A stretch of DNA of 64,000 nucleotides from assembly GCA_903831575.1 (NCBI GenBank), contig CAIKYB010000046.1, positions 16,986 through 80,985 of the forward strand. Direction: 5' to 3'. A program made the translations under genes and the position numbers. Positions within the stretch are counted from its first letter, which is position 1. Each line of letters opens with the position of its first letter. Below are positions 616-44,581 of this stretch, piece by piece. Below the pieces are notes generated by a model that made no database searches, was not told the DNA's origin, and worked only from the letters and a program-made list of their open reading frames with translations. The DNA comes from an uncultured Bacteroidota bacterium. GTDB taxonomy: Bacteria; Bacteroidota; Bacteroidia; Chitinophagales; Chitinophagaceae.

Positions 616-709
616 ATTGTTTGTTGTTTATTGTTTGTTGTTATGCGAATCATCAAATCTTCAAATCATCAAATTACCCAATCAACTTCTCAACAAATCA
701 ACTAATTAT
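616..709 (+). repeat. 94-bp composite repeat, copy A (7-mer TTGTTTR units then 8-mer ATCAAATC/AATCAAC units)
   Basis: Ungapped hand alignment to 1528-1621: 82/94 identical. Confidence 0.85.
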
Positions 710-827
710 TGCCATTAAGTCACGAAGTTGAAATCTTTATACTAGTTTAAAAGTTAAATAATTATTACATATTGTATAAATATTTTGTCTAAATGTAAAA
801 AAAACCTTACATTTATGAAAAAATATA

Positions 828-1307
828 ATGATTCAATTCAAATTTTTATTCCCAAACAAGTACAAAAAATCAGGGTGGGTGATTTTAATAATTGCTTCAA
901 TCCTTGGTATAATATTGATGTTTACGGGCTTTGAGGGTATTCCTATCCACACAAAGGCATTTGCTGTATTCAATGATGAAATATTTGGGGAAAGTCAATT
1001 TTTCACTTTCATAAATACTAATGTTACCAACACTATAGTTGGTTCTTTATTTATCATCGGAGCGATATTAGTTGGATTTTCAAAAGAAAAATATGAGGAT
1101 GAGTTTATTGCCAATATTCGTCAATCTTCACTCCTTTGGGCTGTTTTTGTAAATTATATTTTATTACTTATTTCCTTTATGTTCATCTATGGTACTGCTT
1201 TCTTAAATGTAATGCTGTATAACATGTTTACTGTATTGCTGATTTTTATTTTCAGATTCAATTTTGTTTTGTATCGTAGTTTAAAATCCAACACAGATGA
1301 AAAATAA
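828..1307 (+). CDS. Hypothetical membrane protein (about 4 TM), coupled to downstream XRE regulator
   Basis: 159 aa with hydrophobic segments; KEKYEDEFIANIRQSSL resembles proteins typically paired with small XRE regulators; overlaps next gene by 11 nt. Confidence 0.75.
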   Translation: MIQFKFLFPNKYKKSGWVILIIASILGIILMFTGFEGIPIHTKAFAVFNDEIFGESQFFTFINTNVTNTIVGSLFIIGAILVGFSKEKYEDEFIANIRQSSLLWAVFVNYILLLISFMFIYGTAFLNVMLYNMFTVLLIFIFRFNFVLYRSLKSNTDEK

Positions 1308-1497
1308 ACTCAAAGTAGAAAGGGCAATAAATAATCTTACACAAGAAGAGCTTGCAAAAAAAGTATCGGTTAGTCGGCAAACGATCAATGCGATGGAAGC
1401 CAATAAATATGTTCCTTCAACTGTATTGGCTCTTAAAATCGCACGAGTTTTCAGTAAATCTGTAGAGGATATTTTTATGCTAGATGATGAGGATTGA
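1297..1497 (+). CDS. XRE/Cro family helix-turn-helix transcriptional regulator
   Basis: 66 aa; LTQEELAKKVSVSRQTINAMEANKYVPS is a classic HTH_3 pattern. Confidence 0.93.
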   Translation: MKNKLKVERAINNLTQEELAKKVSVSRQTINAMEANKYVPSTVLALKIARVFSKSVEDIFMLDDED

Positions 1498-1527
1498 AAT
1501 GTTCAAGAGGTTCAAAATGTTTAAAAG

Positions 1528-1621
1528 ATTGTTTGTGGTTTATTGTTTGTTGTACTGAGAATCTTCAAATCAACAAATCCTCAAATTACACAATCAACCT
1601 TTCAACTAATCAACTAATTAT
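1528..1621 (+). repeat. 94-bp composite repeat, copy B
   Basis: Direct copy of 616-709 (12 mismatches, no gaps). Confidence 0.85.
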
Positions 1622-2945: not shown

Positions 2946-3512
2946 TTAAGATTGCGTGATGTTGTTTAATTGTTGTTGAACAAAAGTATTGAATGCTGTT
3001 TCATCTAAACCTTTATTTTCATTTTCATTGATGGTATGCTGAATCAATTTATTGTTTTTAAAATCGATTGTAAGAATATTGTCTTTCAAAATCAAATTAG
3101 ATACTTCATTCCATTCCATTTTTTTTCGGGGTAATGAAGGATAAGAAATAAAATCTACACAAAAATCAATTTTCAATTTCCTCATAGTAATGTAACCCAT
3201 AATCGAAAAAACTAAAAGTAAAAAGCCTATCAAATAAAACCCAACTAGCATCCAAAAAATTGAAGCTAAAAAGAAACTAAATACAATATGAAAGAAATTA
3301 GTTTCTCTGCCTTTATTGTAAAAAAAATACGAGATAAGTGGGGTAAATATTATAGCTCCTCCTATTGATGACAAGGTATGAACACTACTATCTGCAGCAA
3401 CACGGGTTGATAAGTACGTAAATCCAACAATATTAATAACGGAAATTAAAATGGTTAAAATTTTATACGTCCCTTTCTTTTCGTTAGGTAATATGATTGA
3501 AAATTTATCCAT
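2946..3512 (-). CDS. Hypothetical membrane protein
   Basis: 188 aa, several TM segments; start overlaps agmatinase stop. Confidence 0.7.
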   Translation of the reverse strand: MDKFSIILPNEKKGTYKILTILISVINIVGFTYLSTRVAADSSVHTLSSIGGAIIFTPLISYFFYNKGRETNFFHIVFSFFLASIFWMLVGFYLIGFLLLVFSIMGYITMRKLKIDFCVDFISYPSLPRKKMEWNEVSNLILKDNILTIDFKNNKLIQHTINENENKGLDETAFNTFVQQQLNNITQS

Positions 3513-4557
3513 TTACAGGATTGCTAGCGGTTAATAGATTACATAATTTATACAACACTCTGGCTCCTACATTCTCATCCCATTCATCATGACTAACTCC
3601 TACTTCATTCAAATCGAATCCGACAATTTTTTTGCCTGCCTGATGAACTTTATTCAACAGATAAAATATTTGTTCTGTCTCAAAACCGCCCTGCACAGGC
3701 GTTCCAGTATGTGGACATAATTTAGGATCCAATCCATCAATATCAAAACTTACAAAAACATGTTGTGGAAGATGACTCACTATTTCATCAACAATTTTTT
3801 TCCAACTATCGCCTTCGTATAAACGATGTTTGATATCTCGGTCGAAATAGGTAACGACTCTCCCATTGCTATTCTTAATATAATCTAACTCCTCTTCACA
3901 ATAATCTCTTATGCCAACTTGTACAAGCTTCGACAAAGCAGGAATTTTCTCCAGCGCGTTGAACATTATTGATGCATGAGAAAAATCAAATCCTTCATAC
4001 GCATTTCTCAAATCACAATGTGCATCAATTTGAAGAATGCCAAAATCAGGATATTGATCAGCAATGGCTCGGAAATAACCAAATGGCGTACTGTGATCTC
4101 CTCCCAATAAGCCAACAAGCTTCCCTTTTTTAATCAGTTCAGTAGTTTGTTCATATACCCAATCATTTAAAAAAAGACCACCCTGGTTAATTTCTTTTAA
4201 AGATTTTGTCATGAATTTATTGCTGTTCACAGACTCCCCCTGAGAGATATAATTAATATACAATTCCGCTTCTTTTCTTAGATAATCACTTTTCATGAGA
4301 ATTTTCTTATCAGGAGTTTGCATAAAAAAACCTTGTTTCCATGCATCCGTATATTCAGGGTCATAAAGATCAACTTGAAGACTTGCGGTAAAAATATGAT
4401 CTGGGGCTCTTGCTGTACCTGCATTGTAGCTAACCGTCACTTCCCATGGAATAGGAAGAATTACTAACCGTGCTTCATTTTCTGTAAATGGGAGACCAAA
4501 AATATTATTATTGGGGTTCCCTACTGAATTAGGGTCGAAATTGGAAAGATCAGCCAT
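3505..4557 (-). CDS. Agmatinase/arginase (ureohydrolase) family protein
   Basis: Mn-binding motifs GGDHS, DAHCD, SFDIDGLDP. Confidence 0.92.
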   Translation of the reverse strand: MADLSNFDPNSVGNPNNNIFGLPFTENEARLVILPIPWEVTVSYNAGTARAPDHIFTASLQVDLYDPEYTDAWKQGFFMQTPDKKILMKSDYLRKEAELYINYISQGESVNSNKFMTKSLKEINQGGLFLNDWVYEQTTELIKKGKLVGLLGGDHSTPFGYFRAIADQYPDFGILQIDAHCDLRNAYEGFDFSHASIMFNALEKIPALSKLVQVGIRDYCEEELDYIKNSNGRVVTYFDRDIKHRLYEGDSWKKIVDEIVSHLPQHVFVSFDIDGLDPKLCPHTGTPVQGGFETEQIFYLLNKVHQAGKKIVGFDLNEVGVSHDEWDENVGARVLYKLCNLLTASNPVNG

Positions 4558-5110: not shown

Positions 5111-7672
5111 ATGATAAAATTCGAAGGCGAACATTTATTACCAGGACAACTTGGACATTTTTTCGTGATTCTTGCTCTGGTGACGTCCTTAATTTCATTG
5201 ATCTCATTTTTCAATGCAAGTCGCATTGATCAGATTGAAGAGAAAAATCAATGGTTGAAATTTGCCAGAATAAATTTCTTCATTCAAGCGTTTAGCATCA
5301 TTGCTATTTTCTCTACCATATTTTTTATTTGCTTCCATCACTATTATGAGTACATGTATGCCTACAAGCATGCGTCGAAAGAATTAGAACCCAAATTTTT
5401 ACTTGCATGTATTTGGGAAGGGCAAGAAGGAAGCTTTTTACTTTGGGCGATCTGGCATTCCTTACTGGGCGTATTCATTATCTCCATAAAAAACAAAGAT
5501 TATAAAAACACCTGGCAAGCTCCGGTATTGACCGTTATCAGTATGGCTCAATTCTTTTTGATGCTCATGATATTAGGGATTTATTTTTTCGATATCAGAA
5601 TTGGAAATAGTCCTTTCACCCTAACAAGAAACGAAATCCCCGCTCCTATTTTTTCTCAAACCAACTATCTTACTTTCCTCAAAGATGGCATGGGGTTAAA
5701 TGTCTTGTTGAGAAACTATTGGATGGTCATTCATCCTCCTATTTTATTTCTGGGTTTTGCATCAACCATTGTACCCTTTGCGTTTGCTTATGCAGGCATA
5801 CAAACTAAAAAATATGGTGAATGGATAAAGCCCGTATTACCTTGGGCCTTATTTAGCGCATGTGTTTTGGGTGTAGGCATCATGATGGGCGGAAAATGGG
5901 CTTATGAATCGTTGAGCTTCGGTGGATACTGGGCATGGGATCCTGTAGAAAATGCTTCTTTAGTTCCCTGGTTAATTCTTATAGCTGGCGTTCACACCAT
6001 GCTAATCTACAAAGCAACAGGACATTCTTTAAGAGCAAGTTATTTTTTCTCCATACTCACTTTTGTATTTGTACTCTATTCAACGTTTCTAACGCGAACG
6101 GGTATACTTGGAGATACATCCGTTCATGCATTCACAGAAGCTGGAAAAGCCATTAATGTAATGATTGGATTATTGGTCCTCTCATTTGCATTACCTATGC
6201 TTTCGCTGTTTTTTATTCACTATAAAAAAATTCCAGCCATAATCAAAGAAGAAGAAACTTCATCAAGAGAATTCTGGATGTTTATGGGCTCTTTGATCTT
6301 ATTTATTTCTTCCTTGTTCATCATCATCATCACCTCTATTCCGGTATACAGTAAAACGCCATTTTTAAAAGATCTCATTATTAAAATCCACAACGGGCCA
6401 TTGGCAATGCCTGAAGACGCTGAGTTTATTTACAATAAAGTAATGATCATGGTGGCTATTATCCTAGGCTTTATCACAGCAACGACTCAATATTTAAAAT
6501 ACAAAGCCACACCTAGTGCATACCTTATAAAAAATATTAAATACCCTTTGATAATTGCTATCATCCTTTGTATTTCAATTTCTATCCTTTATCCATTTAC
6601 TTTTCACAAACATGGCGCTGGATTTTTAGTCGCCATTTATATTGCATTTTTCTGTTCGGTTTATGCAGTTGTTGCCAATGCCATGTATATTCCATTGGTA
6701 TTGAAAAATAATTTCAAAAGTGCCAGTGCTTCTATTTCCCATATTGGATTTTCTTTAATGATTGCAGGAATGCTGATCTCCAGTAGTAATAAGCAAGTCA
6801 TCAGTGACAGCAAAGTGAACGGCATCACTCTACCCTTGAGTAATGATGCTATGGCTAAAAAACAAGATAACCCAACTGAAAACCTTACTTTAATCAGACA
6901 AATGCCTACACGAATGGGTGACTATGAGGTCACTTATTTAAAGGACTCTATGGGCAATGAAAAAGGCAGAAGTTTCTATGCTTTGCAGTTTGAGAAAAAA
7001 GAAAAAAATAATAAAAAAATTGATGAAAGTTTCAAATTGCAACCTGATGTCTACTTAATGAAAGACAACAACATGAGCAGCAATCCTGACACAAAATCAT
7101 TCTTGACAAAAGATGTGTTCACGTACATTTCTTTTGCTATGAATAAAGAGAGAAATGCAGACACCGCTCAATTTAAAGTCGTGGAAATCGGCGAAGGTGA
7201 TACAGGCTTTTATAGAAATGGATATTACATTCTTAATAAGGTTGTCAAAAATCCGAACAATGAAAAATACCATTACAATCCGAATAGTATTGCGTTAATG
7301 GCCGACATCACATTCGTGAGCAGAGACAGTATGAGATATAGATCAACGCCGCTAGTTGAAGCCGACAGCATGGGAATTTTGCAATATGACGATACCGTTT
7401 ATGCGCAGAATTTATTTGTAAAATTCGTAGGCGTAAGTGACCATCACAAAATAAAAATAGGCATCAAAGAATCTGATAGCCTGATTGATTTTGTAACGGT
7501 TAAATCCTATATCTTTCCTTATATCAATTTAGTTTGGCTCGGATTAGTAATCATGGCTTTTGGTATAATGATGAGTAGTCTGAAACGAGCTGAAATAAAT
7601 CCAAAACTCGCTTCTATAATATTGACATTGGTTTCTGCCGGCTTGATTTATATGTTTCTGTTGGCAAACTAG
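5111..7672 (+). CDS. ccmF: Cytochrome c biogenesis heme lyase CcmF/CcsA family
   Basis: 853 aa polytopic protein; WEGQEGSFLLW, IHPPILFLG and tryptophan-rich GGYWAWDPVENAS motifs. Confidence 0.92.
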   Translation: MIKFEGEHLLPGQLGHFFVILALVTSLISLISFFNASRIDQIEEKNQWLKFARINFFIQAFSIIAIFSTIFFICFHHYYEYMYAYKHASKELEPKFLLACIWEGQEGSFLLWAIWHSLLGVFIISIKNKDYKNTWQAPVLTVISMAQFFLMLMILGIYFFDIRIGNSPFTLTRNEIPAPIFSQTNYLTFLKDGMGLNVLLRNYWMVIHPPILFLGFASTIVPFAFAYAGIQTKKYGEWIKPVLPWALFSACVLGVGIMMGGKWAYESLSFGGYWAWDPVENASLVPWLILIAGVHTMLIYKATGHSLRASYFFSILTFVFVLYSTFLTRTGILGDTSVHAFTEAGKAINVMIGLLVLSFALPMLSLFFIHYKKIPAIIKEEETSSREFWMFMGSLILFISSLFIIIITSIPVYSKTPFLKDLIIKIHNGPLAMPEDAEFIYNKVMIMVAIILGFITATTQYLKYKATPSAYLIKNIKYPLIIAIILCISISILYPFTFHKHGAGFLVAIYIAFFCSVYAVVANAMYIPLVLKNNFKSASASISHIGFSLMIAGMLISSSNKQVISDSKVNGITLPLSNDAMAKKQDNPTENLTLIRQMPTRMGDYEVTYLKDSMGNEKGRSFYALQFEKKEKNNKKIDESFKLQPDVYLMKDNNMSSNPDTKSFLTKDVFTYISFAMNKERNADTAQFKVVEIGEGDTGFYRNGYYILNKVVKNPNNEKYHYNPNSIALMADITFVSRDSMRYRSTPLVEADSMGILQYDDTVYAQNLFVKFVGVSDHHKIKIGIKESDSLIDFVTVKSYIFPYINLVWLGLVIMAFGIMMSSLKRAEINPKLASIILTLVSAGLIYMFLLAN

Positions 7673-13093: not shown

Positions 13094-13162
13094 TTGATTT
13101 GAGGTTGATTAGTTGATTGTCTGATGTCTTAGCGTAACTCCATTTTATCCTGTTCTCTGCGG
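13093..13162 (+). repeat. G/T-rich 8-mer tract plus CTTAGCG...TTCTCTGCGG module after glnS
   Basis: GGTTGATT AGTTGATT units; TTAGCGTAAC and TTCTCTGCGG also occur in the ychF-trhO spacer. Confidence 0.6.
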
Positions 13163-13227
13163 CTATACTTTTACTACTCTTATAGAAGAACGCTAGCTAG
13201 TTCAGTACGATCTATGCAAATCAATAC

Positions 13228-29077: not shown

Positions 29078-30478
29078 TTATCCAAAGAACAAATATGTAA
29101 GCAATATTGACGTAATAATTCCCACCAGATCAGCCAATAACATAGACCAAACTGCGTAGCGGGTATTCTTAATAGATACTGCGCCAAAATATACAGCTAT
29201 TACATATAAAGTAGTATCTGAAGATCCCTGTAAAATACAAGCCAGTCTACCCGGAAAAGAATCTGCACCAAATGTTCTCATCGTATCTACCATCATGCCT
29301 CTTGCACCTCCTCCACTAAATGGTTTAATTAATGCCGTTGGCAACCCATCGACAAATCTCGTATCAGCACCAAACATGGCGAAAATACTTTTGATGCCTC
29401 CAATAAATGTATCGAAAGTGCCACTTGTACGAAGCAAACTAATCGCAACTAACATCCCAACTAAATAAGGAATGATACGAACCGCGGTTTCAAATCCACC
29501 TCTTGCCCCTTCTATAAAAGAATCAAAAACATCCACCTTTTTATACAAGCCACCCAAGACGATAGCAATAAAAATAAATAAAATCAATCCACTGCTTAAG
29601 GAGCTGGAAAAAATTTGTACAGCATCTGGTTCAAGTGAATGAATATATAATACAATCGATGCGATCAACGCAGAAATGCCTAAAATCCATGCAAGAATTA
29701 CAGGCTGGAAAACATTGATCTTTTGTTTGAAACTTACAATCAACATGGATGCCACTGTTGCAATAAAAGTTGCGATCATACAAGGAATGAAAATATCCAT
29801 CGGATTAGCAGACTTCGCAGCAGAGCGCAATGCAATAATACTCACTGGTATCATCGTCATGCCTGATGCGTGCAAACACAGGAACATAATTTGTGGATTC
29901 GAAGCTGTCGACTTATCGGGATTAATTTCCTGTAAACTCTCCATGGCTTTCAATCCAAATGGCGTTGCCGCATTATCCAATCCTAATAAATTTGCAGAGA
30001 AGTTCATCATCATGTGTCCAATAGCAGGATGCCCTTTCGGAACATCGGGGAATATTTTAGAAAAAAACGGCCCTATAATTCTTGATAAAAATCTTATCCC
30101 GCCCGCTTTCTCTGCAATCGACAAAAACCCCATAAACAAAGCCAGGAAGCCAATTAATTTCAAACAAAGCGCTACTGCAGTTTGACAAGTTTCAATCACA
30201 CCATCAGCGTTCGATATTTTGAAAGTTGTGAATTGATTGTCGCTGCTGCGAATCGTTTTTCGATCTCCATTTACATAAATTTTATTGCTGTCAATTTCCG
30301 CCACCATTTGCTTGTCAGCTTCTAAGACATTTATAGTTTTTAATTTAATTGTATCTCCAGATTTCCCCGTAACCATATTAGAAAATATAGTACGGCTTTC
30401 CGTAGACACCGCCAGCTTAATACTTGCAGTTAAAATAGCTATGATGATAAATGCTGACCAAATACGACTTAATACCAT
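29078..30478 (-). CDS. Nucleoside-recognition (SpmA/SpmB fusion) membrane protein
   Basis: ANLLGLDNAATPFGLKAM; KPFSGGGARG; GSSDTTLYVIAVYFG. Confidence 0.88.
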   Translation of the reverse strand: MVLSRIWSAFIIIAILTASIKLAVSTESRTIFSNMVTGKSGDTIKLKTINVLEADKQMVAEIDSNKIYVNGDRKTIRSSDNQFTTFKISNADGVIETCQTAVALCLKLIGFLALFMGFLSIAEKAGGIRFLSRIIGPFFSKIFPDVPKGHPAIGHMMMNFSANLLGLDNAATPFGLKAMESLQEINPDKSTASNPQIMFLCLHASGMTMIPVSIIALRSAAKSANPMDIFIPCMIATFIATVASMLIVSFKQKINVFQPVILAWILGISALIASIVLYIHSLEPDAVQIFSSSLSSGLILFIFIAIVLGGLYKKVDVFDSFIEGARGGFETAVRIIPYLVGMLVAISLLRTSGTFDTFIGGIKSIFAMFGADTRFVDGLPTALIKPFSGGGARGMMVDTMRTFGADSFPGRLACILQGSSDTTLYVIAVYFGAVSIKNTRYAVWSMLLADLVGIITSILLTYLFFG

Positions 30479-30514
30479 GATGAAATAGTTTTTATAATGG
30501 ATGAAAATAAGAAA

Positions 30515-30650
30515 AAATCAACAAACCATTCAACTAATCAACCTTTCAACCACATTCAACCCTTTAGACACCTTTCAACCCTTCAACAACTTTCAACAAC
30601 TTTTCAACCATATTAAACCATTCAACCAATCAACTTTTCAACTAATCAAC
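30515..30650 (+). repeat. C/A-rich mosaic tract of 8-10 nt units ending at the ychF promoter
   Basis: About 14 TCAAC/TTAAAC-cored units (AATCAAC, CTTTCAAC, CCATTCAAC); TATATTTG at 30652-30659 follows immediately. Confidence 0.8.
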
Positions 30651-30682
30651 TTATATTTGCACTCGTTTAAAAAATCAAAAAA

Positions 30683-31783
30683 ATGGCATTACAAGCAGGA
30701 ATTGTGGGATTACCCAACGTAGGAAAATCAACTCTTTTTAACGCAGTGAGCAGCAGTGCAAAAGCACAGGCGAGCAATTACAGATTCTGCACGATAGAAC
30801 CCAATACTGGTTTGGTGAATGTGCCCGATCCAAGACTAAACAAATTAGAAGAATTGGTTAAGCCCAATCGTACGGTACCTACGCAGATAGAAATTGTAGA
30901 TATAGCCGGCCTTGTAAGAGGTGCTAGTAAAGGGGAAGGTTTGGGAAATAAATTTCTTGCTAATATCAGAGAAGTTGACGCCATCATTCATGTAATCCGC
31001 TGTTTTGAAGATGATAATATTTTAAGAGATGAAGGGCCTATAAATCCTGTTGGTGACAAAGAAATTATCGAAACAGAATTGCAATTAAAAGATCTGGAAA
31101 GTGTAGAGAAAAAAATACAACGTACAGAAAAACTATTAAAACAAGGTGACGCTAAATTAAAAGCCGAATACGAGGTACTGAAAGCATGCAAAGAACACCT
31201 TGATAAAGGAAAGAATATTTTATCTCTTGGGTTAAGCAAAGATGACAAATCTGCTATTGCTGATATTTTCTTACTAACGGATAAGCCTATTTTGTATGTG
31301 GCAAATGTTGATGAAGCTTCTATGCATACAGGCAATAAATTTTCTAACGCTTTAATTGAAGCTGTTAGAAATGAAGGCAATGAAGTTATTGTAATGACCA
31401 ATGCCATCGAGGCGCAGATTGCAGAATTTGATAATGAAGATGACAAACACATGTTCATGGAAGAGTATAAAATGGTGGAACCTGCATTAGACAGGTTGAT
31501 TCACTCTACTTATAAATTATTAAACTTATCGACATACTTTACCGCTGGAGTTCAGGAAGTAAGAGCCTGGACGATTCAACAAGGATGGAAAGCTCCTCAG
31601 GCAGCAAGTGTCATCCATACAGATTTTGAAAAAGGATTCATCAAAGCTGAAGTAATCGCCTATGATGACTTTGTGCATTATGGATCAGAAGCGGCATGCA
31701 GAGACAACGGCAGATTGCGTATAGAAGGAAAAGAATACTTAGTTCATGATGGCGATGTGATGCATTTTAGGTTTAATGTATAG
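30683..31783 (+). CDS. ychF: Redox-regulated ATPase YchF (Obg family)
   Basis: [36 protein letters not shown]. Confidence 0.97.
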
Positions 31784-31793
31784 TCATGAGGAG

Positions 31794-31982
31794 GTTTCAG
31801 AGGTTTCAAATCGCTGCGCTTGTTTAATGAGTTCAAAACGTTTAAATCAAATTCATCAAAACTAATTTTAAAACAGAATTAAGCGAATCTTAGCGTTCTT
31901 ATTTCTCTGCGGTGATAAATAAACCTTAAGGCGTTTCAAAGGTTTCAATCGCTGCGCTAGTTTAATGAGTTCAAAATGTTTA
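31794..31982 (+). repeat. Two ~51-bp direct repeats (31794-31844; 31933-31982) with TCGCTGCGCT core
   Basis: 47 of 51 positions identical by hand alignment; 88-nt spacer. Confidence 0.85.
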
Positions 31983-32038
31983 GCGTAACCACATAATATC
32001 AAATCCAACCTATTCAACCTTTTCAACCTATTCCCTAA

Positions 32039-33067
32039 TCAACCAAGATTCGGCCTTCTTCTTCTCGACTTATTAAAAACCATCATCCCTTTGTCAATTC
32101 CTTTTCTGAGTTGCTTTTGTTCTTCTTCGGGAAGATTAATGATATCATGACATTCATTACTACAAGTGCCATTAAATTGTTTTGCACAGGTTTCGCATTG
32201 AATAAAAAGCAAATGGCAACCTTCATTTTTACAATTAGTATGTGTATCAGCTGGATTACCACACTGATGGCACTTAGCGATAATTTCGTCTGTAATCCGC
32301 TCTCCTAGTCTGTCATCAAAAACGAAATTTTTTCCATGAAATTTATTGGAAAGTTGTTGTTCCTTAACCTTGTTGGCATAATGAATAATCCCCCCTTCTA
32401 AATGAAATACATTTTTAAATCCACGATGCAGCATATACGCACTTGCTTTTTCACATCTGATGCCTCCGGTGCAATACATGATGATGTTCTTGTCTTTTTG
32501 ATCACCCAATAGCTTAGCAGCCATAGGCAATTGCTCTCTGAAGGTATCACTTGGAACCTCTATGGCATTTTCGAAATGACCAACTTCATATTCGTAATGG
32601 TTGCGCATATCAACAACAACCGTATCGGGATCTTCGGTTAACTTATTAAATTCATCAGCATTTACATATTGTCCTTTATTCGCCATACTGAATTCGGGAT
32701 CTTTAATCCCATCAGCAACGATTTTATCTCTCAATTTCACTTTAAGTACCCAGAAAGATTTCCCATCATTATCAACGGCAATGTTTAGACGAAGTCCATT
32801 TAATGTTGGATAATTATATAAATAACTTTTAAATGCTTCGAAATTTTCTTCAGGAACACTTACCTGTGCATTGATGCCTTCAGTAGCAATATAAATCCTA
32901 CCAAACACATTCAACTCTGCTAACCCTTTATAAAATTCATCTCTGAACTCTTGTGGATTTTCAATAAAAAAATATTGATAAAAGGAAATGGTGATTCTGT
33001 AGAATGTTTCTTCATACAAGCGATTTTTAAGCTCCGCCTGTGAAACGCGATTGTGTAATACTGCCAT
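32039..33067 (-). CDS. trhO: Rhodanese-domain tRNA U34 hydroxylase (UPF0176)
   Basis: [42 protein letters not shown]-terminal Cys cluster; TACTTTTG promoter at 33145-33152. Confidence 0.9.
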
Positions 33068-33169
33068 AGTAAAATATTTGACTCCAAATGAATGGAGAAT
33101 CTAAAAAAGATTGGATGCTTGCAGGGCAAACCAAATTGTCATAGCAAAAGTAGAGTTTTATACGTTTAC

Positions 33170-35737
33170 TCAAAAATTAATTCCAATGGAACGCTTTCTT
33201 GAAAGGCCATTTCCCCTATTATTTAGCCCTCCGCTTAAAACACCTCCAGCGCCGAAAACTAATGCAGAATTGACATACCGGCCATTTTGATAAGCACTTA
33301 CAAAATCAACTCTCATTAATTTAAATATATTTTCGAGACCAACATATAACTCTTCGTAATGATTAGCATTACTGATATAATAAGAATGCATGCCCGTTAT
33401 TAAACCCCAATTCCATTTCTTTATTAATGGGATTTTATTAGTAATGAATCCATTAAAATGGTGCTCCACATGACATGATAAATACAATTTGTCTGTATTA
33501 GAATTAAGGTAAGAACCCATTAGTTGAAAACTCGTTTCATTGTCCAAAGATGCCTTTAATGGATTTCCAAAAAAATGGGTATAATCCTGAATGAAAACTT
33601 TATTCGCATTCAAAAATCCTCCGACAGATAATTTATATTTAAATAGTCCGCCCAATTTAAAATTCATATCATCCTTAATATCTAGATTCCATTTATCAAA
33701 ATCAGCATCACTGCCCAAAACGGTTGCAATACCTTTTGTATAATTCAAAGTAAATAGTGGATATTTTGAACCTAAAGGCATTCTTTGATCGGGGAATTGA
33801 ATGTAACGTTGACCAGGCCTAAAACTAATTTCAATATTGGCTAAAAGTGCCTGATGATGAAATACTTCGTTCAATGAAACTCTGTCAACAGGATAATTTT
33901 CTGTAAGCTTTATGCTGTCTGCTTTTTTAAAAGTGTAAGTGCTTGAATTGAAAAGTGGTGCACGATCTTCAAACGTAGCTTTTAGGGTAAAACTTAACCC
34001 CGATTCATAACGTTTTCTAAAAGCAAGTCCGCCATAATATTTTTCATAGGTCTTCATTACATTTTTACCACTAAATAAAGTACTGAAGGAATTCAATAAG
34101 GGCTCCACAGGATTTTCATTATTATACTGCGATACACGTTTACCGCCAGATAAAAACCATGCAATATGTTTGTTTTGATGCATTTTATTTTTACCATTGG
34201 GCCTTATAGCAATATCTACCCAGCTATTCAAATGTGTATTCGCAAAACCATACCTGATATTGGGCTGAACAAATAATTTGTATTTGCGTTTGGGATTATT
34301 TTGTTCGTAATAACCTCCCAATTGTCCTACCACACCTTCAGCTGTATTATATTGCAGATTTCCGATTAAAGATTCTATTCCCCATTGATAAGGATTGGTT
34401 TTACTGAAATGATTTCTATTGATATTTGAAAGGAAGATTTTTTGAATTTTAAATTTTCCCTGCTTTTTTTTAAGTGAATCAATATTATTATAAACAGAAT
34501 TTGAATCTGATCTTAAAACGAATAAACTGTCCTTAATTCTATAATCATCCTTTTCCTCTAACTCAAGCGGGACAGGCCTTACAGAATCCCAATATTGCCT
34601 CATTTTTTTATTAACTCCTGTGTCATATTTTATTACAATACGATCAAAAAACTTTTTATCAAAATTCCTGTTGATGTTATAATTGGAATAAACTGTAAGA
34701 AAATGACCAATCACATCTATTTTAAACATGTTGAAATTAAAATAAAGCAGTTGATCTTTCACTCTCCAGATATCATTACTAACGGGAATGTGCAACTGTG
34801 TTATTTTCAACGTATCCAAGAATTCAAGTTGCGACTGTTTGGTTAAGGTCAGATCAAAACTTTGAATCCGCCAATCTTCATCTGTAATATTGATGATGCC
34901 TGAAAAAAGTGGTTCATAATTTCTACGCGGTATCACTTTAATAGCATTAACTACTTTTCCGTTTTCCATAAACGTGCCTAAAATCTTGTATTTATAAAAC
35001 CGCAAAGCCCCATCTGCAATTGGCGAAACATATCCTCTGGTACCAAAGCTGCCATTGAAAATACTTACATTATTTTCATACAAATTAATAAAAGCAGGAA
35101 AAGTAAATCCGAAACTATTACTGCCACTCACTCTGCTGCTTTTAACATCCAGCTTGAATTTATCAGGTTGCTGCACATAGACTTTTGAAATCGCTTCAGA
35201 CAAATAAATAATCCCCTTCCCGGATGAATCCAAACCCATTGTTTTTCTGTCTTCTTCCGGCATCTTTTTACCCATAATTTTATTAGGCAAATTTCTTAAT
35301 TTGATTAAATCTTTACTATACAAATCGCAATCAAAAGACTTTACCAGATTATTATAATAATTTCTTTTTTTAATCGCTTGTCTGATGATTTCATATGCGG
35401 GATTATCTTCGCCACTTTTTATAATAAGTTCTTTCAATAATAGTTGTTGTTTATGGAGCGTAAAATTCAATTCCATATCAGCGGACAATTCTACACTCTT
35501 TTCAATAGATTCATAACCAACATGCTGACAAACCAAAATGTATTTACCCGGTGGTAAGAAAAAGGAATAGTCAGCTTTATTATTGGCGGTAACACCTGAA
35601 GAAGTTCCTTTAATAACGATTGAGGCATAAGGAAGTAAACTCCCATTGTCATCGCGAACAACGCCATATAATTTCTGAGCATCTAGTTCAGAACAAAAGA
35701 TTAATAATAAAAGTATGGTGAAAATCGGCTTATTCAT
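33170..35737 (-). CDS. Outer-membrane protein with N-terminal carboxypeptidase-regulatory-like domain (DUF5686-like)
   Basis: Start moved to MNKPIF (signal peptide ending LDAQ); G.VRDD..G..LPYASI domain; C-terminal Phe. Confidence 0.8.
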   Translation of the reverse strand: MNKPIFTILLLLIFCSELDAQKLYGVVRDDNGSLLPYASIVIKGTSSGVTANNKADYSFFLPPGKYILVCQHVGYESIEKSVELSADMELNFTLHKQQLLLKELIIKSGEDNPAYEIIRQAIKKRNYYNNLVKSFDCDLYSKDLIKLRNLPNKIMGKKMPEEDRKTMGLDSSGKGIIYLSEAISKVYVQQPDKFKLDVKSSRVSGSNSFGFTFPAFINLYENNVSIFNGSFGTRGYVSPIADGALRFYKYKILGTFMENGKVVNAIKVIPRRNYEPLFSGIINITDEDWRIQSFDLTLTKQSQLEFLDTLKITQLHIPVSNDIWRVKDQLLYFNFNMFKIDVIGHFLTVYSNYNINRNFDKKFFDRIVIKYDTGVNKKMRQYWDSVRPVPLELEEKDDYRIKDSLFVLRSDSNSVYNNIDSLKKKQGKFKIQKIFLSNINRNHFSKTNPYQWGIESLIGNLQYNTAEGVVGQLGGYYEQNNPKRKYKLFVQPNIRYGFANTHLNSWVDIAIRPNGKNKMHQNKHIAWFLSGGKRVSQYNNENPVEPLLNSFSTLFSGKNVMKTYEKYYGGLAFRKRYESGLSFTLKATFEDRAPLFNSSTYTFKKADSIKLTENYPVDRVSLNEVFHHQALLANIEISFRPGQRYIQFPDQRMPLGSKYPLFTLNYTKGIATVLGSDADFDKWNLDIKDDMNFKLGGLFKYKLSVGGFLNANKVFIQDYTHFFGNPLKASLDNETSFQLMGSYLNSNTDKLYLSCHVEHHFNGFITNKIPLIKKWNWGLITGMHSYYISNANHYEELYVGLENIFKLMRVDFVSAYQNGRYVNSALVFGAGGVLSGGLNNRGNGLSRKRSIGINF

Positions 35738-35805
35738 TTTAAAATAAATTTGAAAAAGCAAAGTAAAGGGATTTTTATTTGATGTAAAATTCAATTGCAT
35801 TTTCA

Positions 35806-35960
35806 TTGCCGTGGTTCGTACCTGGTTCGTACCATCGTATTAAGTCGGTAGTTCACACCAAACGATGAATTTCTGATTCTCGCCATGGCATTGGATTTCA
35901 TAAGCAAATGCCCAACAATGTGGTTCATACCTGGTTCGTACCATGGCAATACCACGGCAA
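35806..35960. repeat. 155-bp element with 10-bp terminal inverted repeats and internal 25-bp direct repeats
   Basis: TTGCCGTGGT (35806-35815) / ACCACGGCAA (35951-35960); GTGGTTCRTACCTGGTTCGTACCAT at 35811-35835 and 35920-35944. Confidence 0.8.
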
Positions 35961-35989
35961 GCGAGCATATTCATAAGAAAGTAATAATA

Positions 35990-36021
35990 AAACAAAACCC
36001 TTCTCTATTAGGAGAAGGGTT
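35990..36021 (-). terminator. Intrinsic terminator of the alpha operon
   Basis: AACCCTTCTC-N6-GAGAAGGGTT stem followed on minus strand by TTGTTT. Confidence 0.75.
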
Positions 36022-36045
36022 AGTAAAATGTAATTCGTTTATGAA

Positions 36046-36567
36046 TTAAGCTTCTGGTGTTTCTTCTACCACTTCTGCTTCTGTAATTGCATCATCTGTT
36101 GCTGCTTCTGCATCAGCTTTTTTCTTGCTGCCACCAGCACGACGTGTTTTCTTAACTGTTTCTGTAGCTTGACCAATTCCTTTGCCGTAAATTTCATTAA
36201 AATCTACCAATTCAATCATAGCCATTTCAGCATTATCACCAATACGAGCACCTAATTTAATGATACGTGTATATCCTCCTGGACGATCAGCAACTTTAGG
36301 TGCAACCACTGTAAATAATTCTTTTACAGCTTCTTTATCGTTTAAGTAACTAAACACAATACGATGGTTATGCATAATCGCTTCTTTGCTCGAATTAGCC
36401 TTTGTTTTAGTAATCAATGGCTCAATAAAAGTACGAAGTGCCTTAGCTTTTGCTACAGTTGTAGTGATTCTTTTGTAAGTAATCAACTGGCAGCTTAGAT
36501 TCATAAGTAGTGCTTTTCTGTGAGAAGCAGTTCTACTTAAATTGTTTTTTTTGTTTCCGTGACGCAT
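36046..36567 (-). CDS. rplQ: 50S ribosomal protein L17 with Bacteroidota-type C-terminal extension
   Basis: [29 protein letters not shown]. Confidence 0.97.
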
Positions 36568-36632
36568 GACTTTTTGTTTTATACCCTGTACCGTGTCAGG
36601 AATTACAGAGTTTGTTTATAAAAATTCTTTCC

Positions 36633-36720
36633 GATTTAGTGATTTGATGATTTGATGATTTGATGATTTGAATGCTATTGACATCTTTAAATGGACAAAT
36701 CAACTCCTCTTCAAATCAAT
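36633..36720. repeat. 8-mer repeat tract inside the rpoA-rplQ spacer
   Basis: (GATTTGAT)x3 plus a partial unit at 36641-36671; complementary CAAATCA units at 36697-36720. Confidence 0.8.
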
Positions 36721-37715
36721 TACTCGTCATCTAATTTTAATTTGCTTAAATCCATTCCAAAGCTCAAGCCTCTTTCGTGAAGAACCTGATCGATTTCACT
36801 CAATGATTTTTGTCCGAAGTTTCTGAATTTCATCAAATCTTCTTGCTCATATTGAACCAACTCACTCAATGAATTAATTTTAGCTGCTTTCAAACAATTG
36901 AATGCACGAACAGATAAATCTAAGTCTTCAAGCGGCGTTTTCAACATCTTACGAAGTTGTAAGGTTTGCTCGTCAACTAAATCTTCTTTCTTATCTTCTT
37001 TTGTATCGAAAGTGATATTTTCATCAGTAATGATCATCAAATGCTGGATCAAAATACGGCTAGCTTGTTTAACCGCTTCTTCAGGATGAATAGTTCCATC
37101 AGTAATAACTTCCATTATTAATTTTTCGAAGTCTGTACGTTGTTCTACCCTTGTATTCTCAATCAAATACTTAACATTTTTGATTGGAGTATAAATAGCA
37201 TCAACAGGAATGTACCCAAAATGAGAGCTCTTTTCTTTTTGCTCTTCAGCTGGAACGTAACCACGACCTTTTCCAATAGTGATTTCTATATCCAATTTTG
37301 CACTGTTATCTAAAGTACAAATCATCAATTCCGGATTCATTACTTCGAAAGATGGAGTAGCTTCTCCAATCATTCCTGCATTAAATTCGGTCTTGTTTTT
37401 TATAGAAAGGGAAATCTTTTCGGTAGTTACATCATGATCAACTATAGATTTAAAACGTACTTGCTTTAAATTCAAAATCATTTCAGTTACATCTTCAGTT
37501 ACACCTTTAAGTGTAGCAAATTCATGATCCGCTCCTACGATGTTGATTCCGATGATTGCATGTCCTTCCAAAGAATTAAGTAATACTCTGCGAAGAGCAT
37601 TGCCAATTGTTACGCCATATCCTGGCTCTAAAGGACGAAATTCGAATTGTGCTTCAAAATCATTTGCTTTTTGTAGTACAATTTTATCTGGTTTAACAAA
37701 ATTAAAAATAGCCAT
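36720..37715 (-). CDS. rpoA: RNA polymerase subunit alpha
   Basis: PLEPGYGVTIGNALRRVLL; alpha-CTD LSVRAFNCL...NFGQKS. Confidence 0.98.
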   Translation of the reverse strand: MAIFNFVKPDKIVLQKANDFEAQFEFRPLEPGYGVTIGNALRRVLLNSLEGHAIIGINIVGADHEFATLKGVTEDVTEMILNLKQVRFKSIVDHDVTTEKISLSIKNKTEFNAGMIGEATPSFEVMNPELMICTLDNSAKLDIEITIGKGRGYVPAEEQKEKSSHFGYIPVDAIYTPIKNVKYLIENTRVEQRTDFEKLIMEVITDGTIHPEEAVKQASRILIQHLMIITDENITFDTKEDKKEDLVDEQTLQLRKMLKTPLEDLDLSVRAFNCLKAAKINSLSELVQYEQEDLMKFRNFGQKSLSEIDQVLHERGLSFGMDLSKLKLDDE

Positions 37716-37801
37716 CTGTATTTTGTTGTTTTAATTTAGTGTTTAAAATATGTCGTTTATCCCGACGTTTATTTATTAAAAAAGTAGAATAAGAATCAAG
37801 A

Positions 37802-38407
37802 TTACTTACTGTACAATTCCACAATCAATTGCTCCTTAATATTTTCAGGAACACTTTCTCTTTCAGGATAAGCAATAAATGTACCTTTCAATTCTGATTC
37901 GCTCCAATCCAACCAACTGAATTTAGGATTCTTGCCGCGAACGCTTCCTGTGATAGCAACATTTGCAGCACTTTTGTTTTTCAATCCAACTACATCACCT
38001 GGTTTGCAGCTATAAGAAGGAATGTTAAGGATATCTCCATTAACAGTTACATGCTTGTGACTTACCATCTGACGAGCAGCTTGACGACTTGGTGCAATAC
38101 CCATTCTGAAAACAGTATTATCCAAACGAGCTTCTAATAATTTGATTAAGTTTTCACCAGTTACCCCTTTTCTGCGAGCAGCTTCTTCGAAAGTTTTACG
38201 GAATTGTTTTTCTAACAAGCCATAAGTGTACTTCGCTTTTTGCTTTTCTTTCAACTGAACACCATACTCACTTAAAGTTTTACGCTTTTTAGTGCCGCCA
38301 TGCTGTCCTGGAGGATTACTGTTTTTAGTTAACCACTTGCCGTTTCCTGTAATAGGTTCTCCAAATCGGCGGGAGATTTTTGTTTTGGGGCCTGTATAAC
38401 GTGCCAT
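37802..38407 (-). CDS. rpsD: 30S ribosomal protein S4
   Basis: [34 protein letters not shown]. Confidence 0.98.
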
Positions 38408-38495
38408 AATGTTGTTGGTGACCTTTTAGTGTCGATGCATCATCAGTAAGGTCTTTAAAATAAATGATGCACCCGTTAATAAATAGTGTTATAAA

Positions 38496-38906
38496 TTATA
38501 CTCTTCTTTTCTTTGGAGGGCGACAACCATTGTGAGGCATTGGAGTAATATCTTTAATCATTGATACTTCCAATCCACTTTGAGAAAGTGAACGAATAGC
38601 TCCTTCACGTCCGCTACCAGGGCCTTTTACAAATACGTCAACTCTTTTCAATCCTGCATCAATAGCAGTTTTTGCCGCATCAGCACCAGCCATCTGAGCT
38701 GCATAAGGTGTATTTTTCTTACTTCCTTTGAAACCCATTTTACCAGCAGATGACCAAGAAATTACCTGACCATTTTTGTTGGTTAAACTGATAATAATGT
38801 TGTTGAATGTAGCAGAGATATGAGCATCCCCATAGCTGTCTACTTTTACTACACGCTTTTTTGCTGCAGCTTTTGCGCTTTGCGCTTTTTGTTGTGCCTT
38901 TGCCAT
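38496..38906 (-). CDS. rpsK: 30S ribosomal protein S11
   Basis: [34 protein letters not shown]. Confidence 0.98.
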
Positions 38907-39046
38907 TTTTTAATTAAATAGGTGATCTTAAAAAAATTACTCGGTTGCCCGAGGCTGAACCAACCCTCCTGCTGACTTAAAAAGCTATCCGGCGTTGATT
39001 CAAAAAAATAAGTCGATATACTTTATACTCCGTTAAGGAACATTAA

Positions 39047-39424
39047 TTACTTCGTTACTTTTTTCTTACCTGCTACTGTCTTACGCTTTCCTTTTCTTGT
39101 ACGACTGTTAGTACGAGTACGTTGACCACGAACAGGCAATCCTTTACGATGGCGCAACCCACGATAACAAGCGATATCAAGCAAACGCTTAATATTCATT
39201 TGAGTTTCACTACGTAAAGCTCCTTCTGTTTTGAATTCGTTGTTGATAACATTACGAATAGCGGTTTGTTCGTCATCATTCCACTGGTTTACTTTTTTAT
39301 TCAAATCTATTCCAGACTTGGTTAAAATGTATTGAGCAGTAGAGCGACCAATACCATAAATATAGGTAAGACCGATTTCTCCTCTTTTGTTCTTTGGTAA
39401 ATCTATACCGGCAATACGTGCCAT
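39047..39424 (-). CDS. rpsM: 30S ribosomal protein S13
   Basis: [27 protein letters not shown]. Confidence 0.98.
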
Positions 39425-39459
39425 AGAAGTGTTTTATTTTTAGTTTTAAAATTAGTTGA

Positions 39460-39576
39460 TTACCCTTGTTTTTGCTTAAAACGAGGATTCTTTTTGTTGA
39501 TTACATATAAACGTCCTTTTCTTCTCACGATTTTGCAATCAACGCTGCGTTTTTTAATTGAAGCTCTAACCTTCAT
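39460..39576 (-). CDS. rpmJ: 50S ribosomal protein L36 (not in ORF track; Zn-ribbon-less form)
   Basis: Translated by hand: [38 protein letters not shown]. Confidence 0.97.
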
Positions 39577-39623
39577 CTTTTTTTAGTTTTATCTATTTGA
39601 TAATTGCTGATTATTCAGCTTTT

Positions 39624-39842
39624 TTATTTGTATCTAAATATGATTCGACCCCTTGTCAAATCGTATGGACTCATCTCTACACCTACTTTGTCTCCTGGTA
39701 GAATACGGATATAATGCATCCTCATTTTACCAGAAATCGTAGCCAATATTTCATGACCATTTTCTAATTTAACCTTGAACATAGCATTGCTCAGCGCCTC
39801 TACTATCGAACCATCTTGTTTTATTAATGCTTGCTTAGCCAT
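39624..39842 (-). CDS. infA: Translation initiation factor IF-1
   Basis: [31 protein letters not shown]. Confidence 0.98.
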
Positions 39843-39924
39843 AAATTTAGGAGCGCGAAGATAGGAGAAATAAATTACTTTTTAAAGAAAATTTAGTAAT
39901 ATTACTTTTTAAAACTTTAAAATC

Positions 39925-40731
39925 ATGAAAAAAACACTCTTTTTAGGACTTTTTATCAGCATTTTTGTTATTTCTTGCAAAAAAGACGACTCCAACGCTA
40001 ACAACTCAGGTAATGGCGGAAATAATTCAGGTGCTACTCCATTATTTTTCAGTTTTAATAGTGGTGATTATTGGGATTATAAAACCGATTCGGCAAATTT
40101 AACACTGTCACTGTTTACACTTACTTCTACAAACAAAGACACTACTTTCCCTTCTATACCTTCCAAACAATTTCACATATTCGAATCTTATGATGGGACT
40201 ACTATTACAGAAGAGTATTATAATGCAAATGGAAACAATTATTATCAATTGGTTAGTCTAACAAACCTATTGCCTACTCTTGACTTGAAATATCTTGTAA
40301 CCAATGCCCCAGCAAATACTTATTGGGACACGACAATAAATGCAATAATCCCCATATTGACTTATAACTTTAATCTCACCGCAAAAATCAGACAAACCAT
40401 TGAACAAACTAATACATCAATAGTAGTAAATGGCACTTCATATGATAGTGTCATCAAATTGAAAACTGAAATATTAAATGCAACTGCATCAAGCCAGATT
40501 CAACTTCTGCCAGCCCCTTTTCCTGCAACAACAATTAATCTTCCTATAGATATTGCCCAAGACATACACACTTTTTATGCTCCAAGAGTTGGGGAAGTAC
40601 AAAGAAATTATGCAATAAATGCAACAGCAAATCTCAGAAGCTTAAGCGCTTTAATAACTACACTACCAGATTCAATTAGTTTGATAAATACTAATAGGAC
40701 AACGACTTTGTTAAACTCAAATGTTCATTAA
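39925..40731 (+). CDS. Hypothetical lipoprotein
   Basis: Lipobox VISC followed by KKDDS and an N/G-rich linker. Confidence 0.8.
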   Translation: MKKTLFLGLFISIFVISCKKDDSNANNSGNGGNNSGATPLFFSFNSGDYWDYKTDSANLTLSLFTLTSTNKDTTFPSIPSKQFHIFESYDGTTITEEYYNANGNNYYQLVSLTNLLPTLDLKYLVTNAPANTYWDTTINAIIPILTYNFNLTAKIRQTIEQTNTSIVVNGTSYDSVIKLKTEILNATASSQIQLLPAPFPATTINLPIDIAQDIHTFYAPRVGEVQRNYAINATANLRSLSALITTLPDSISLINTNRTTTLLNSNVH

Positions 40732-40751
40732 TTCCTTAAAAAATTATCAAT

Positions 40752-40786
40752 AAAAAAAAGAGCGAGAAAATCTCGCTCTTTTTTTT
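40752..40786. terminator. Bidirectional intrinsic terminator
   Basis: A8-GAGCGAGA-AAA-TCTCGCTC-T8 between convergent genes. Confidence 0.9.
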
Positions 40787-44573: not shown

Positions 44574-44581
44574 TGACTTTA

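Follow-up and report, generated by a model that had tools for sequence, protein, structure and literature searches.

A gene-end hairpin repeated around a membrane-protein and XRE-regulator operon in an uncultured Chitinophagaceae bacterium

Introduction

How does a small operon come to lie between two copies of a repeat when no mobile-element enzyme is nearby? The question is raised by a 64,000-nt stretch of DNA (hereafter the window) from an uncultured freshwater Bacteroidota bacterium of the family Chitinophagaceae (GenBank assembly GCA_903831575.1, contig CAIKYB010000046.1, positions 16,986 to 80,985). Near its start, two 94-nt direct repeats bracket a gene for an uncharacterised membrane protein and a gene for an XRE/Cro-type helix-turn-helix (HTH) regulator. 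The original prediction, made from the sequence of the window, was that the repeat may be a landing or recombination site for small accessory cassettes. We consider it rather more probable than otherwise that the copies derive from an old duplication of a gene-end hairpin, similar to repetitive extragenic palindromes (REPs), around an inserted operon, and that they have since been a substrate for homologous recombination.

Results

The repeat pair

Upon realignment the two copies match without gaps at 82 of 94 positions, and a repeat search of the window extends the pair to 95 nt at 87% identity (615-709 and 1527-1621). The proposed layout was also recovered. Both copies start with a 26-nt block of 7-mers (TTGTTTG/TTGTTTA; ATTGTTTGTNGTTTATTGTTTGTTGT), followed by a variable junction of 6 nt (TATGCG in copy 1, ACTGAG in copy 2) and by seven C/A-rich 8-mers plus AATTAT in identical register. 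The membrane-protein and XRE genes are the sole content between the copies and are set between convergent S9 peptidase and radical-SAM genes, as had been stated. The features of the locus are, in order:

16-588, + strand: 3' end of a gene of the S9 prolyl-oligopeptidase family (Pfam Peptidase_S9, E=3e-40)
589-615, + strand: outer G/T arm of hairpin 1, made of GGTTGA-type 8-mers, outside the 94-nt duplication
616-709, + strand: repeat copy 1 (7-mer G/T block 616-641, loop TATGCG 642-647, C/A arm 648-709)
710-827, + strand: region upstream of the module, with a palindrome and a TTTG box resembling the Bacteroidota-type -7 element
828-1307, + strand: gene for a membrane protein of 159 aa, uncharacterised family
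1297-1497, + strand: gene for an XRE/Cro-type HTH regulator of 66 aa (Pfam HTH_3, PF01381, E=1.1e-12; HTH_26, E=2e-6)
1498-1527, + strand: G/T-rich 9-mer arm (AAATGTTCA-type units), left arm of hairpin 2, just past the XRE stop
1528-1621, + strand: repeat copy 2 (7-mer G/T block 1528-1553, loop ACTGAG 1554-1559, C/A arm 1560-1621)
1622-1632, + strand: spacer CCTCCCCAGGC before the radical-SAM stop
1633-2934, - strand: radical-SAM gene, 433 aa, convergent with the module (Pfam Radical_SAM, E=1.5e-13)

It is very improbable that the copies resemble each other by chance, or only at the level of a family in which all gene ends are built from the same few array units. Arrays do occur at about 10 per 64 kb, G/T arms of the GGTTGA type are present in metagenomes at 20-30x single-copy depth, and units are common to several species. 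However, when the seven C/A units of copy 2 were permuted, only 32 of 5040 orders reached the observed 48/56 matches to copy 1 (p=0.006), and the 7-mer block and the position of the junction are common to both copies as well. The runner-up ungapped 94-nt match to copy 1 in the whole window, on both strands, reaches 57/94, and an orthologous pair is kept in three lineages. The unit permutation and the window-wide scan lead us to reject chance similarity, which the original prediction had itself named as a way in which it could fail under a shuffled-unit null.

Hairpins at the junction

The S9 stop codon TAG (586-588) abuts a hairpin of ~115 nt (hairpin 1), formed directly after it by the arm at 589-615 and copy 1. 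The outer C/A arm of either copy can pair with this arm, the better partner being copy 2 together with CCTCCC (1622-1627). The G/T to C/A complementarity described in the original prediction is real (79% across 28 nt, 593-620 against 1590-1617), and CTCCC of the spacer pairs with GGGAG at 588-592. Hairpin 1 (586-715) has a predicted fold of -34.3 kcal/mol (z=-3.3). For copy 2 by itself the fold is not distinguishable from that of shuffled sequence (z=-1.2), and an in silico join of 586-615 to 1528-1635 gives a hairpin of -50.8 kcal/mol. In two related lineages that carry the same module (contigs L093 and L193, described below), the S9-side G/T arm is complementary to the C/A arm at the radical-SAM stop 1.1 kb away, over 53 nt at 77% with sub-blocks at 88-93%. 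Together with the fold of the joined ends, this places the module within an older, larger hairpin. The 9-mer arm at 1498-1527 has homologues in the arms next to S9 in L093, L193 and the allele without the module.

No U tract was found past 709 or 1621, and the structures do not have the form of intrinsic (Rho-independent) terminators. An Rfam scan of 400-1800 identified no family; two matches, to snoU19 and Pseudomonadales-1, were below threshold and are attributed to chance, and assignment of the hairpins to a known RNA family was rejected.

Three lineages share the insertion

The module occupies the same junction in L093 and L094 (JGI 3300043372) and in L193 (ENA GROS21-1). Compared with the window, these lineages show:

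L093: S9 protein 95% aa identity, radical SAM 92% aa, membrane protein 83% aa
L193: S9 3' end 81% nt identity, radical-SAM 3' end 88% nt, membrane protein 84% aa

The whole region is collinear across the three lineages at ~80-83% nt identity, including the surroundings of the XRE stop (GAGGATTGAAA), which argues for one old insertion and not for recent transfer. Conservation of the repeat arms equals or exceeds that of the flanking coding sequence (81-88% identical).

The duplication was originally longer than 94 nt, at about 130-170 nt. Window positions 1490-1621 align to the left copy of L093, including its 9-mer arm, over 138 nt at 75%, and in both L093 and L193 the repeat extends into TGCC..CACGAAG. 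A second partial C/A arm with a TGCC..CACGAAG unit lies downstream of XRE in L093. The left arm of L193 has the order GGTTGA units, 9-mers, 7-mers. This was the original layout, from which the window has lost the 9-mers and L093 the GGTTGA units.

The copies have exchanged sequence. The loop and C/A arm of copy 1 are identical to the left copy of L093 at 60/60 positions, one 8-nt unit excepted, and the S9 3' end beside copy 1 is only 87% identical to L093. Copy 2 of the window matches the left copy of L193 at 91-94% identity, although the loop of that left copy is type-1-like. The left copy of L193 therefore combines a right-type C/A arm with a type-1-like loop, and marks a gene-conversion tract between the flanking copies. 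The two repeat types are older than the split of the lineages.

Variation within the species and an apparent allele without the module

An identical membrane protein was found on 22 contigs, and it is at this locus in all 10 inspected. Conspecific contigs vary by whole units: the G/T arm at 589-615 has one unit (8 nt) fewer, the same number, or one unit more; the C/A arm of copy 1 can be 16 nt shorter; and the 9-mer arm has an 18-nt (two-unit) indel. One such contig (L083) carries the complete S9 gene, of 637 aa. Other differences were also seen: L091 has a TCG>TAG nonsense mutation in XRE codon 24, L089 has a 30-nt deletion in the promoter region, and L090 is unlike the window upstream of ~753 (its positions 1-41), in another context or possibly as a chimera.

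Lake and freshwater metagenome contigs of eight runs were compared at the junction. In five of the eight (X1, X3, X5, X7, X8) the S9 end is joined to a 9-mer arm via 23 novel nt. An identical 266-nt contig from X5 and X8, which belong to different studies, consists of 388-589, then ATGAAAATGTTTGGGAGGTTTGG (23 nt), then 1507-1547, and differs from the window at 1-3 positions within 388-589. The same joint is present in X3, loose ends of it in X1, and a version one 9-mer unit shorter in X7. In the X5 assembly graph, the joint contig (depth 13.7) and the module contig (5.9) lead into a shared 36-nt node at 1518-1553 (18.8), with exits to a variant of copy 2 (14.2) and to window-type copy 2 (6.7). 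The variant has six substitutions (A1554C, T1578A, C1579T and C1589A among them) and 81 extra nt in place of 1622-1629, followed by the radical-SAM end. In X3 the S9 end has depth 16.2, the module 9.5 and the joint contig 5.9; we read the first as the sum of the others.

From these depth-matched contigs, there is apparently a conspecific allele without the module, consisting of the S9 stop, one hairpin and the radical-SAM stop. A one-repeat empty site had been predicted, and its apparent presence also means that the module is not a fixed feature of the junction. Its G/T arm starts as a left type (TTTGGGAGGTTTGGGAGG; compare TTTAGTAGGTTTGGTAGG of L193) and ends as a right type (TTCAAAATGTTTAAAAGATTG), with the last 21 nt identical, which is the form that a crossover between left and right copies would produce. 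The alternative that an L193-like left arm still leads into the module was disfavoured, since both exits of the node carry copy-2-type loops (A/CCTGAG), neither being TATGCG, and since the depths pair 13.7 with 14.2 and 5.9 with 6.7. Loss would be the more parsimonious direction of change, given that three more diverged lineages share the module and that k-mers of the window allele recur in the flanks of the empty allele. Look-ups with exact proteins (radical SAM, the 188-aa protein of the adjacent gene, and CcmE), aimed at a contig across the empty allele, returned only short contigs or contigs ending at the repeat, and no circle junction was recognisable among the assembled contigs.

Arrays at gene ends are a genome- and clade-wide class

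About 10 arrays of 7-9-nt units were identified in the window, all intergenic and most starting at a stop codon. In addition to those at the module, they are at 13094, 15682, 30513-30654, 31999-32043, 36622-36720, 43924, 46560-46630 and 51400-51440. The G/T strand nearly always corresponds to the mRNA and has its start at, or overlapping, the stop codon, as seen for S9, GlnRS, DapF, a rhodanese-family gene, RpoA, a TP_methylase gene and PEPCK. The neighbours are mostly core genes (e.g., glnS, dapF, ychF, rpoA/rplQ and pckA). Units include TTGGTTGA, TTGTTTG and GTTCAAAAG, and a complementary C/A array sometimes follows the G/T array to form a hairpin. Stop codons abound on the G/T strand (in most arrays, in every frame) and are almost absent from the C/A strand. 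Only two arrays of the window, both of the C/A strand, precede start codons: 30513-30654, ~30 nt upstream of ychF, and 43924-43939, which abuts the rsmG ATG.

The class is abundant in relatives. Loci of 160 relatives, 1.34 Mb in total, contain 147 arrays of period 7-10 (1 in shuffled sequence), or ~11 per 100 kb, and two thirds are strictly strand-asymmetric. At the S9/radical-SAM junction itself, L015, L016, L017, L019 and L066 carry analogous hairpins made from different units (GTTTGGG/CTAAACT, AAGGAATAAG/CTTATTCC and GATTTGGA/TCCAAATC). Comparison of contigs from four runs over 30001-50000 revealed mostly cross-mapping of arrays and divergent spacers of other species, with insertions of 8-nt units at 32027/32032 relative to the window. 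Thus, the repeat belongs to an abundant class that abuts stop codons, mostly beside core genes, and the idea that it is a dedicated site did not hold.

The array hairpins are not simply the terminators of this organism, because one of them lies inside the rpoA-rplQ operon and canonical terminators with a G+C stem and U tract are present elsewhere in the window (e.g., 40731-40785). They look more like REPs and the related bacterial interspersed mosaic elements (BIMEs). Judged by position and conservation, their normal role is probably REP-like, in 3'-end protection or partial termination of the upstream transcript. A search for RNA runs returned none.

Several details of the arrays were recorded. 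The array hairpin at 36622-36720 lies within the ribosomal operon between rpoA (36720-37715, - strand) and rplQ (36046-36567, - strand). On the mRNA strand it has a G/T arm and then four copies of TCAAATCA, and folds at -28.7 kcal/mol (z=-2.5); this spacer has a different sequence in other lake strains or species. The stop codon of the TP_methylase open reading frame (ORF; 46608-47276) is supplied from within an array, and the stop-free C/A strand gives rise to a spurious 73-aa ORF call at 30501-30722. A second short repeat, AGCGT(A/T)..TTCT(C/T)TGCGG, adjoins arrays at 13128-13165 and 31880-31915 (examples are TCTTAGCGTAACTCC..GTTCTCTGCGG and TCTTAGCGTTCTTATTTCTCTGCGG) and may be a separate family similar to REPs or miniature inverted-repeat transposable elements (MITEs). 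The 255-nt spacer between ychF and the rhodanese-family gene, which are convergent, holds a 36-nt direct repeat (94%, 138 nt apart, 31809-31844 and 31947-31982) next to the array at 31999-32043. The short AGCGT-type repeat also occurs beside arrays in metagenome contigs: several runs contain a contig that matches the copy-2 C/A arm up to 1615 and continues as TCGCGTAACTCAGCGTTCTTATTTCTCCGC.

The junction in other relatives

The radical-SAM protein retrieved metagenome-assembled genomes (MAGs) of Ferruginibacter and other Chitinophagaceae at 82-91% identity. Synteny over 160 related loci shows a conserved block of an arginase-family gene, a gene for a 188-aa protein and radical SAM. The membrane-protein/XRE module is at this junction in none of the 160. 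JGI metagenome contigs searched for closer relatives gave a best match of 91%, and none has the module. Past the radical-SAM stop, the spacer is 3 bp in L011 and ~50 bp and repeat-free in L003 and L004, with a hairpin in others.

Other occupants of the junction include a 149-aa uncharacterised protein, a 285-aa protein, a second peptidase pair, and a HigA-like HTH protein with a toxin remnant (this last and the 149-aa protein were read by eye from translations). The S9 gene is itself a variable occupant, as it is missing in L006, L009, L010 and L014, where a methylmalonyl-CoA mutase gene is directly convergent with radical SAM. In L014 the spacer is filled with GAGGTTTAA and GTTCAAAAG 9-mers plus GTTTGGT 7-mers. 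In ten relatives, the other inserts have no flanking repeats or split hairpins, except in L075. There, the final 53 nt of the radical-SAM gene with its stop codon (7250-7302) recur at 85% identity 363 nt downstream (7613-7665). This pair brackets a 67-aa hydrophobic ORF, and is another small insertion with a long direct duplication.

No Pfam or NCBIfam family was identified for the 188-aa protein (2946-3512, - strand). Its identity in relatives is only 25-54%, against 72-91% for the neighbouring genes, and so it evolves fast within a conserved block; conspecific contigs encode a 186-aa variant.

The membrane-protein/XRE module

By eye, the alignment of the membrane protein shows about four hydrophobic helices and an invariant family motif, SKEKxEDE..R..S. 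The protein has no family in Pfam or NCBIfam and no match in a profile search of PDB sequences. Naming it through Pfam searches with each of 20 family members also failed (three faint matches to DUF6442, E ~0.03). Homologues number 970, at 60-84% identity and chiefly in Chitinophagaceae, and an XRE gene follows in 10/10 contexts inspected. In the window the two genes overlap by 11 nt. The XRE protein scores 48 bits against HTH_3 (cutoff 23) and is a genuine member of that domain family.

A perfect palindrome, TAAATGTAA (790-798) - N8 - TTACATTTA (807-815), lies just 5' of the membrane-protein start codon, and is likely the operator of the XRE protein; the adjoining TTTTTGTC box would belong to the promoter of the module. 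TTTTTGTCTAAATGTAAAA is kept upstream of homologous modules in L093, L098 and L193. Because the palindrome and the box are conserved across contexts, the module is probably a self-contained, autoregulated operon. The start of the upstream region (TGCCATTAAGTCACGAAG) recurs downstream of XRE in L093, where 4723-4763 matches 3858-3898 at 78%.

In other genera (L095-L100, L194-L197) the module has a different gene neighbourhood in all 10 contigs inspected, including BlaI/BlaR and DUF3347/TonB-dependent receptor genes. Flanks were read in two of these contigs, L095 and L098, and no 7-9-mer arrays were found beside the module. In L095 (4700-5110), from another genus, the pair is followed by four tandem copies of a ~120-nt repeat (CCCCCGGGGCTGCCGCCCCTTACCCCC...). 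L096 (4700-4830), with an identical membrane protein, has one copy and then wholly different genes.

Comparison with known systems

Three accounts propose REPs as 3'-untranslated-region regulators and as hot spots of recombination and insertion-sequence (IS) integration (PMC1525189, PMC3733652, bioRxiv 10.64898/2026.03.23.713779). The elements described here resemble the REPs and BIMEs of Enterobacteria and Pseudomonas in being multi-copy, extragenic and hairpin-forming, in following stop codons, in occurring between convergent genes and in operons (here between rpoA and rplQ), and in being prone to recombination. However, REPs are G+C-rich palindromes of 20-40 nt with a conserved head (GTAG/CGTC). 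Here each arm consists of A/T-rich 7-9-mers in tandem over 30-60 nt, the two strands being strictly asymmetric (G/T versus C/A), and the units vary by locus and species, with copy number changing by whole units in the manner of a variable number tandem repeat (VNTR). The GTAG at 585-588 is only the context of the S9 stop codon and not a REP head. No REP-associated tyrosine transposase (RAYT; Y1 HUH transposase) is present among the ~60 proteins of the window.

Intergenic heptamer repeats (TAACTGA and related), for which a part in gene rearrangement has been considered possible, are known from Beggiatoaceae, Cyanobacteria and some Bacteroidetes (MacGregor 2015, PMC4679880). They share with the present arrays the form of short intergenic tandem direct repeats, an occurrence in ribosomal-protein operons, relatives with shorter repeat-free spacers, and contigs that break in the repeats. 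In contrast, most TAACTGA sets are just upstream of start codons and are not described as hairpin-paired; here the units are others, and the G/T arrays are at stop codons, often followed by a complementary C/A array.

The integron attC system is similar in that a small gene unit is bounded by similar imperfect hairpins of ~60-140 nt and that empty and occupied states are conceivable. It differs in that there is no IntI, attI or Pc here (no tyrosine recombinase was identified in 64 kb), one fixed module has its own putative promoter, and the sites are low-complexity arrays found genome-wide beside core genes. The attC cores (RYYYAAC ... GTTRRRY) are lacking: AATCAAC and GTTGATT are each one position off and recur every 8 nt. 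The locus also does not have the form of an IS, MITE or transposon, as the flanks are long direct repeats, there is only a 3-nt AGG at the indel ends, and no transposase was found.

A further parallel is with deletion between direct repeats or Campbell-type integration, whether RecA-dependent or by slippage. Direct flanking repeats of ~100-170 nt, gene conversion between copies, and no necessity for an element-encoded enzyme are common to both; the apparent empty allele, with its one chimeric-looking copy, would be another shared point. Nothing mechanistic separates the two, although the repeats here are themselves palindromic, terminator-like elements of a genome-wide class.

Discussion

Under the explanation that we favour, a gene-end hairpin would have been directly duplicated long ago, and the 94-nt copies would be the parts of its cores that are best preserved. 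The element has a G/T 7-9-mer run from the stop codon, a short loop, and a C/A 8-mer run that pairs back. The two-gene module would have entered the convergent S9/radical-SAM junction in the ancestor of three species-level, Ferruginibacter-like lineages, with one hairpin copy on each side afterward. This may have occurred via single-crossover integration of a circle carrying a homologous hairpin, or via insertion into the hairpin with target duplication. The copies would then have acted as ordinary direct repeats without a dedicated enzyme, gaining and losing whole units by slippage and exchanging sequence by gene conversion. In part of the lake population, a RecA-type crossover between them would have removed the module and left one chimeric hairpin. 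Ordinary homologous recombination between direct repeats of ~100-170 nt could explain all of the observations. The absence of a linked enzyme, as claimed in the original prediction, was upheld: Pfam searches of essentially all of the ~60 window proteins identified housekeeping functions only, and no transposase, integrase or other recombinase.

Several points weigh against this explanation. No contig spans the empty allele from S9 to radical SAM, and the link is made by depth matching via the 36-nt node; in X8 and X10 the depths fail to sum cleanly, and 81 nt of the allele are unread. The allele has no GGTTGA arm (590-615) and has a 9-mer arm instead. Thus, the present 94-mers cannot have given rise to it; an older left copy with a 9-mer arm is required, and an S9-side 9-mer arm was found in no cassette-bearing contig of this species. 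The call of a chimeric arm rests on ~40 nt of low-complexity sequence. The AGG (AGGAT-GAAA) microhomology at the junction could equally explain an illegitimate deletion or insertion, and the empty allele could be ancestral, as an old polymorphism that was retained. Finally, with an array inside the rpoA-rplQ operon and canonical terminators elsewhere, a terminator or stabiliser role for the hairpins is inferred only.

The version in which the empty allele is ancestral is unlikely. The window allele would then be a ~903-nt insertion (590 to ~1492) at AGG microhomology, comprising hairpin 1, the promoter and both genes, with a related hairpin brought from a donor locus. AGG does stand at both junctions (GTAGG followed by GAGTTGG, and GATGAGG followed by ATTGAAATG), and the indel is one complete hairpin plus operon unit. 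Composites of a GGTTGA arm and a 7-mer block occur at other loci (a 1635-nt contig, X7), so hairpin 1 could come from elsewhere. Yet the module with the right junction GAGGATTGAAA is also present in L093 and L193, two lineages at a far greater distance than the empty-allele strain. This, together with the k-mers that the flanks of the empty allele share with the window allele, suggests that the insertion predates the species. Moreover, the C/A arms are specifically related, with few other copies at at least 85% identity (depth ~1.5-3x, against 20-30x for the G/T arms), and the C-terminus and stop of XRE are native, being of equal length in L095 and L098.

The landing-site idea of the original prediction stands in part. 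The copies do exchange sequence, as in the left copy of L193 with its right-type C/A arm, and there is an apparent empty site; only a single module is found between the repeats, and the different cassettes that were predicted between the same repeats were not seen in the window, L093 or L193. In its strong form, an attC-like composite hairpin that captures and releases varied small cassettes via an unlinked and possibly novel recombinase, it is improbable. Hairpin-forming repeats bracketing a small accessory module with a one-repeat empty site would fit it, as would the widely varying content downstream of radical SAM among relatives, the second partial C/A unit after XRE in L093 (as though units were arrayed), C/A arms more conserved than the adjacent coding sequence, and the suggestion that heptamer repeats in Bacteroidetes aid gene rearrangement (MacGregor 2015, PMC4679880). 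However, all three lineages have the one module and no alternative cassette, and other inserts at the junction are without flanking repeats or split hairpins. The module has its own putative promoter and operator and in L095 and L098 is not beside arrays, and arrays mostly flank core genes. No integrase is encoded in the 64 kb, and the units, which depart from the attC core consensus, are found throughout as tandem arrays.

It is also improbable that the strand-asymmetric hairpins are a distinct and actively maintained class that serves as genome-wide docking points for circles carrying a hairpin and an operon, with no enzyme or with one not yet described. If true, this would be a chromosomal, integrase-less analogue of attC-based cassette exchange, with conversion, or some novel means of propagation, maintaining the likeness of the hairpins.

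Recombination between duplicated hairpins, which fits the data, is an ordinary mechanism, and the value of the locus is in its description and not in a new concept. Literature searches yielded no account of such tandem-unit hairpins in Chitinophagaceae, which is weak evidence of novelty. The long, VNTR-like hairpins of G/T 7-9-mers and C/A 8-mers are apparently an undescribed, REP-like flavour of repeat in this family. At this locus, a small operon for a regulator and a membrane protein offers a case from nature of gain and loss at a gene-end hairpin with no enzyme of a mobile element close by, and lake populations are apparently still polymorphic for it. If such hairpins generally mark recombination-prone boundaries of modules, this would explain why contigs of MAGs frequently break there, and would help to explain small-scale variation in gene content in this abundant freshwater and soil family.

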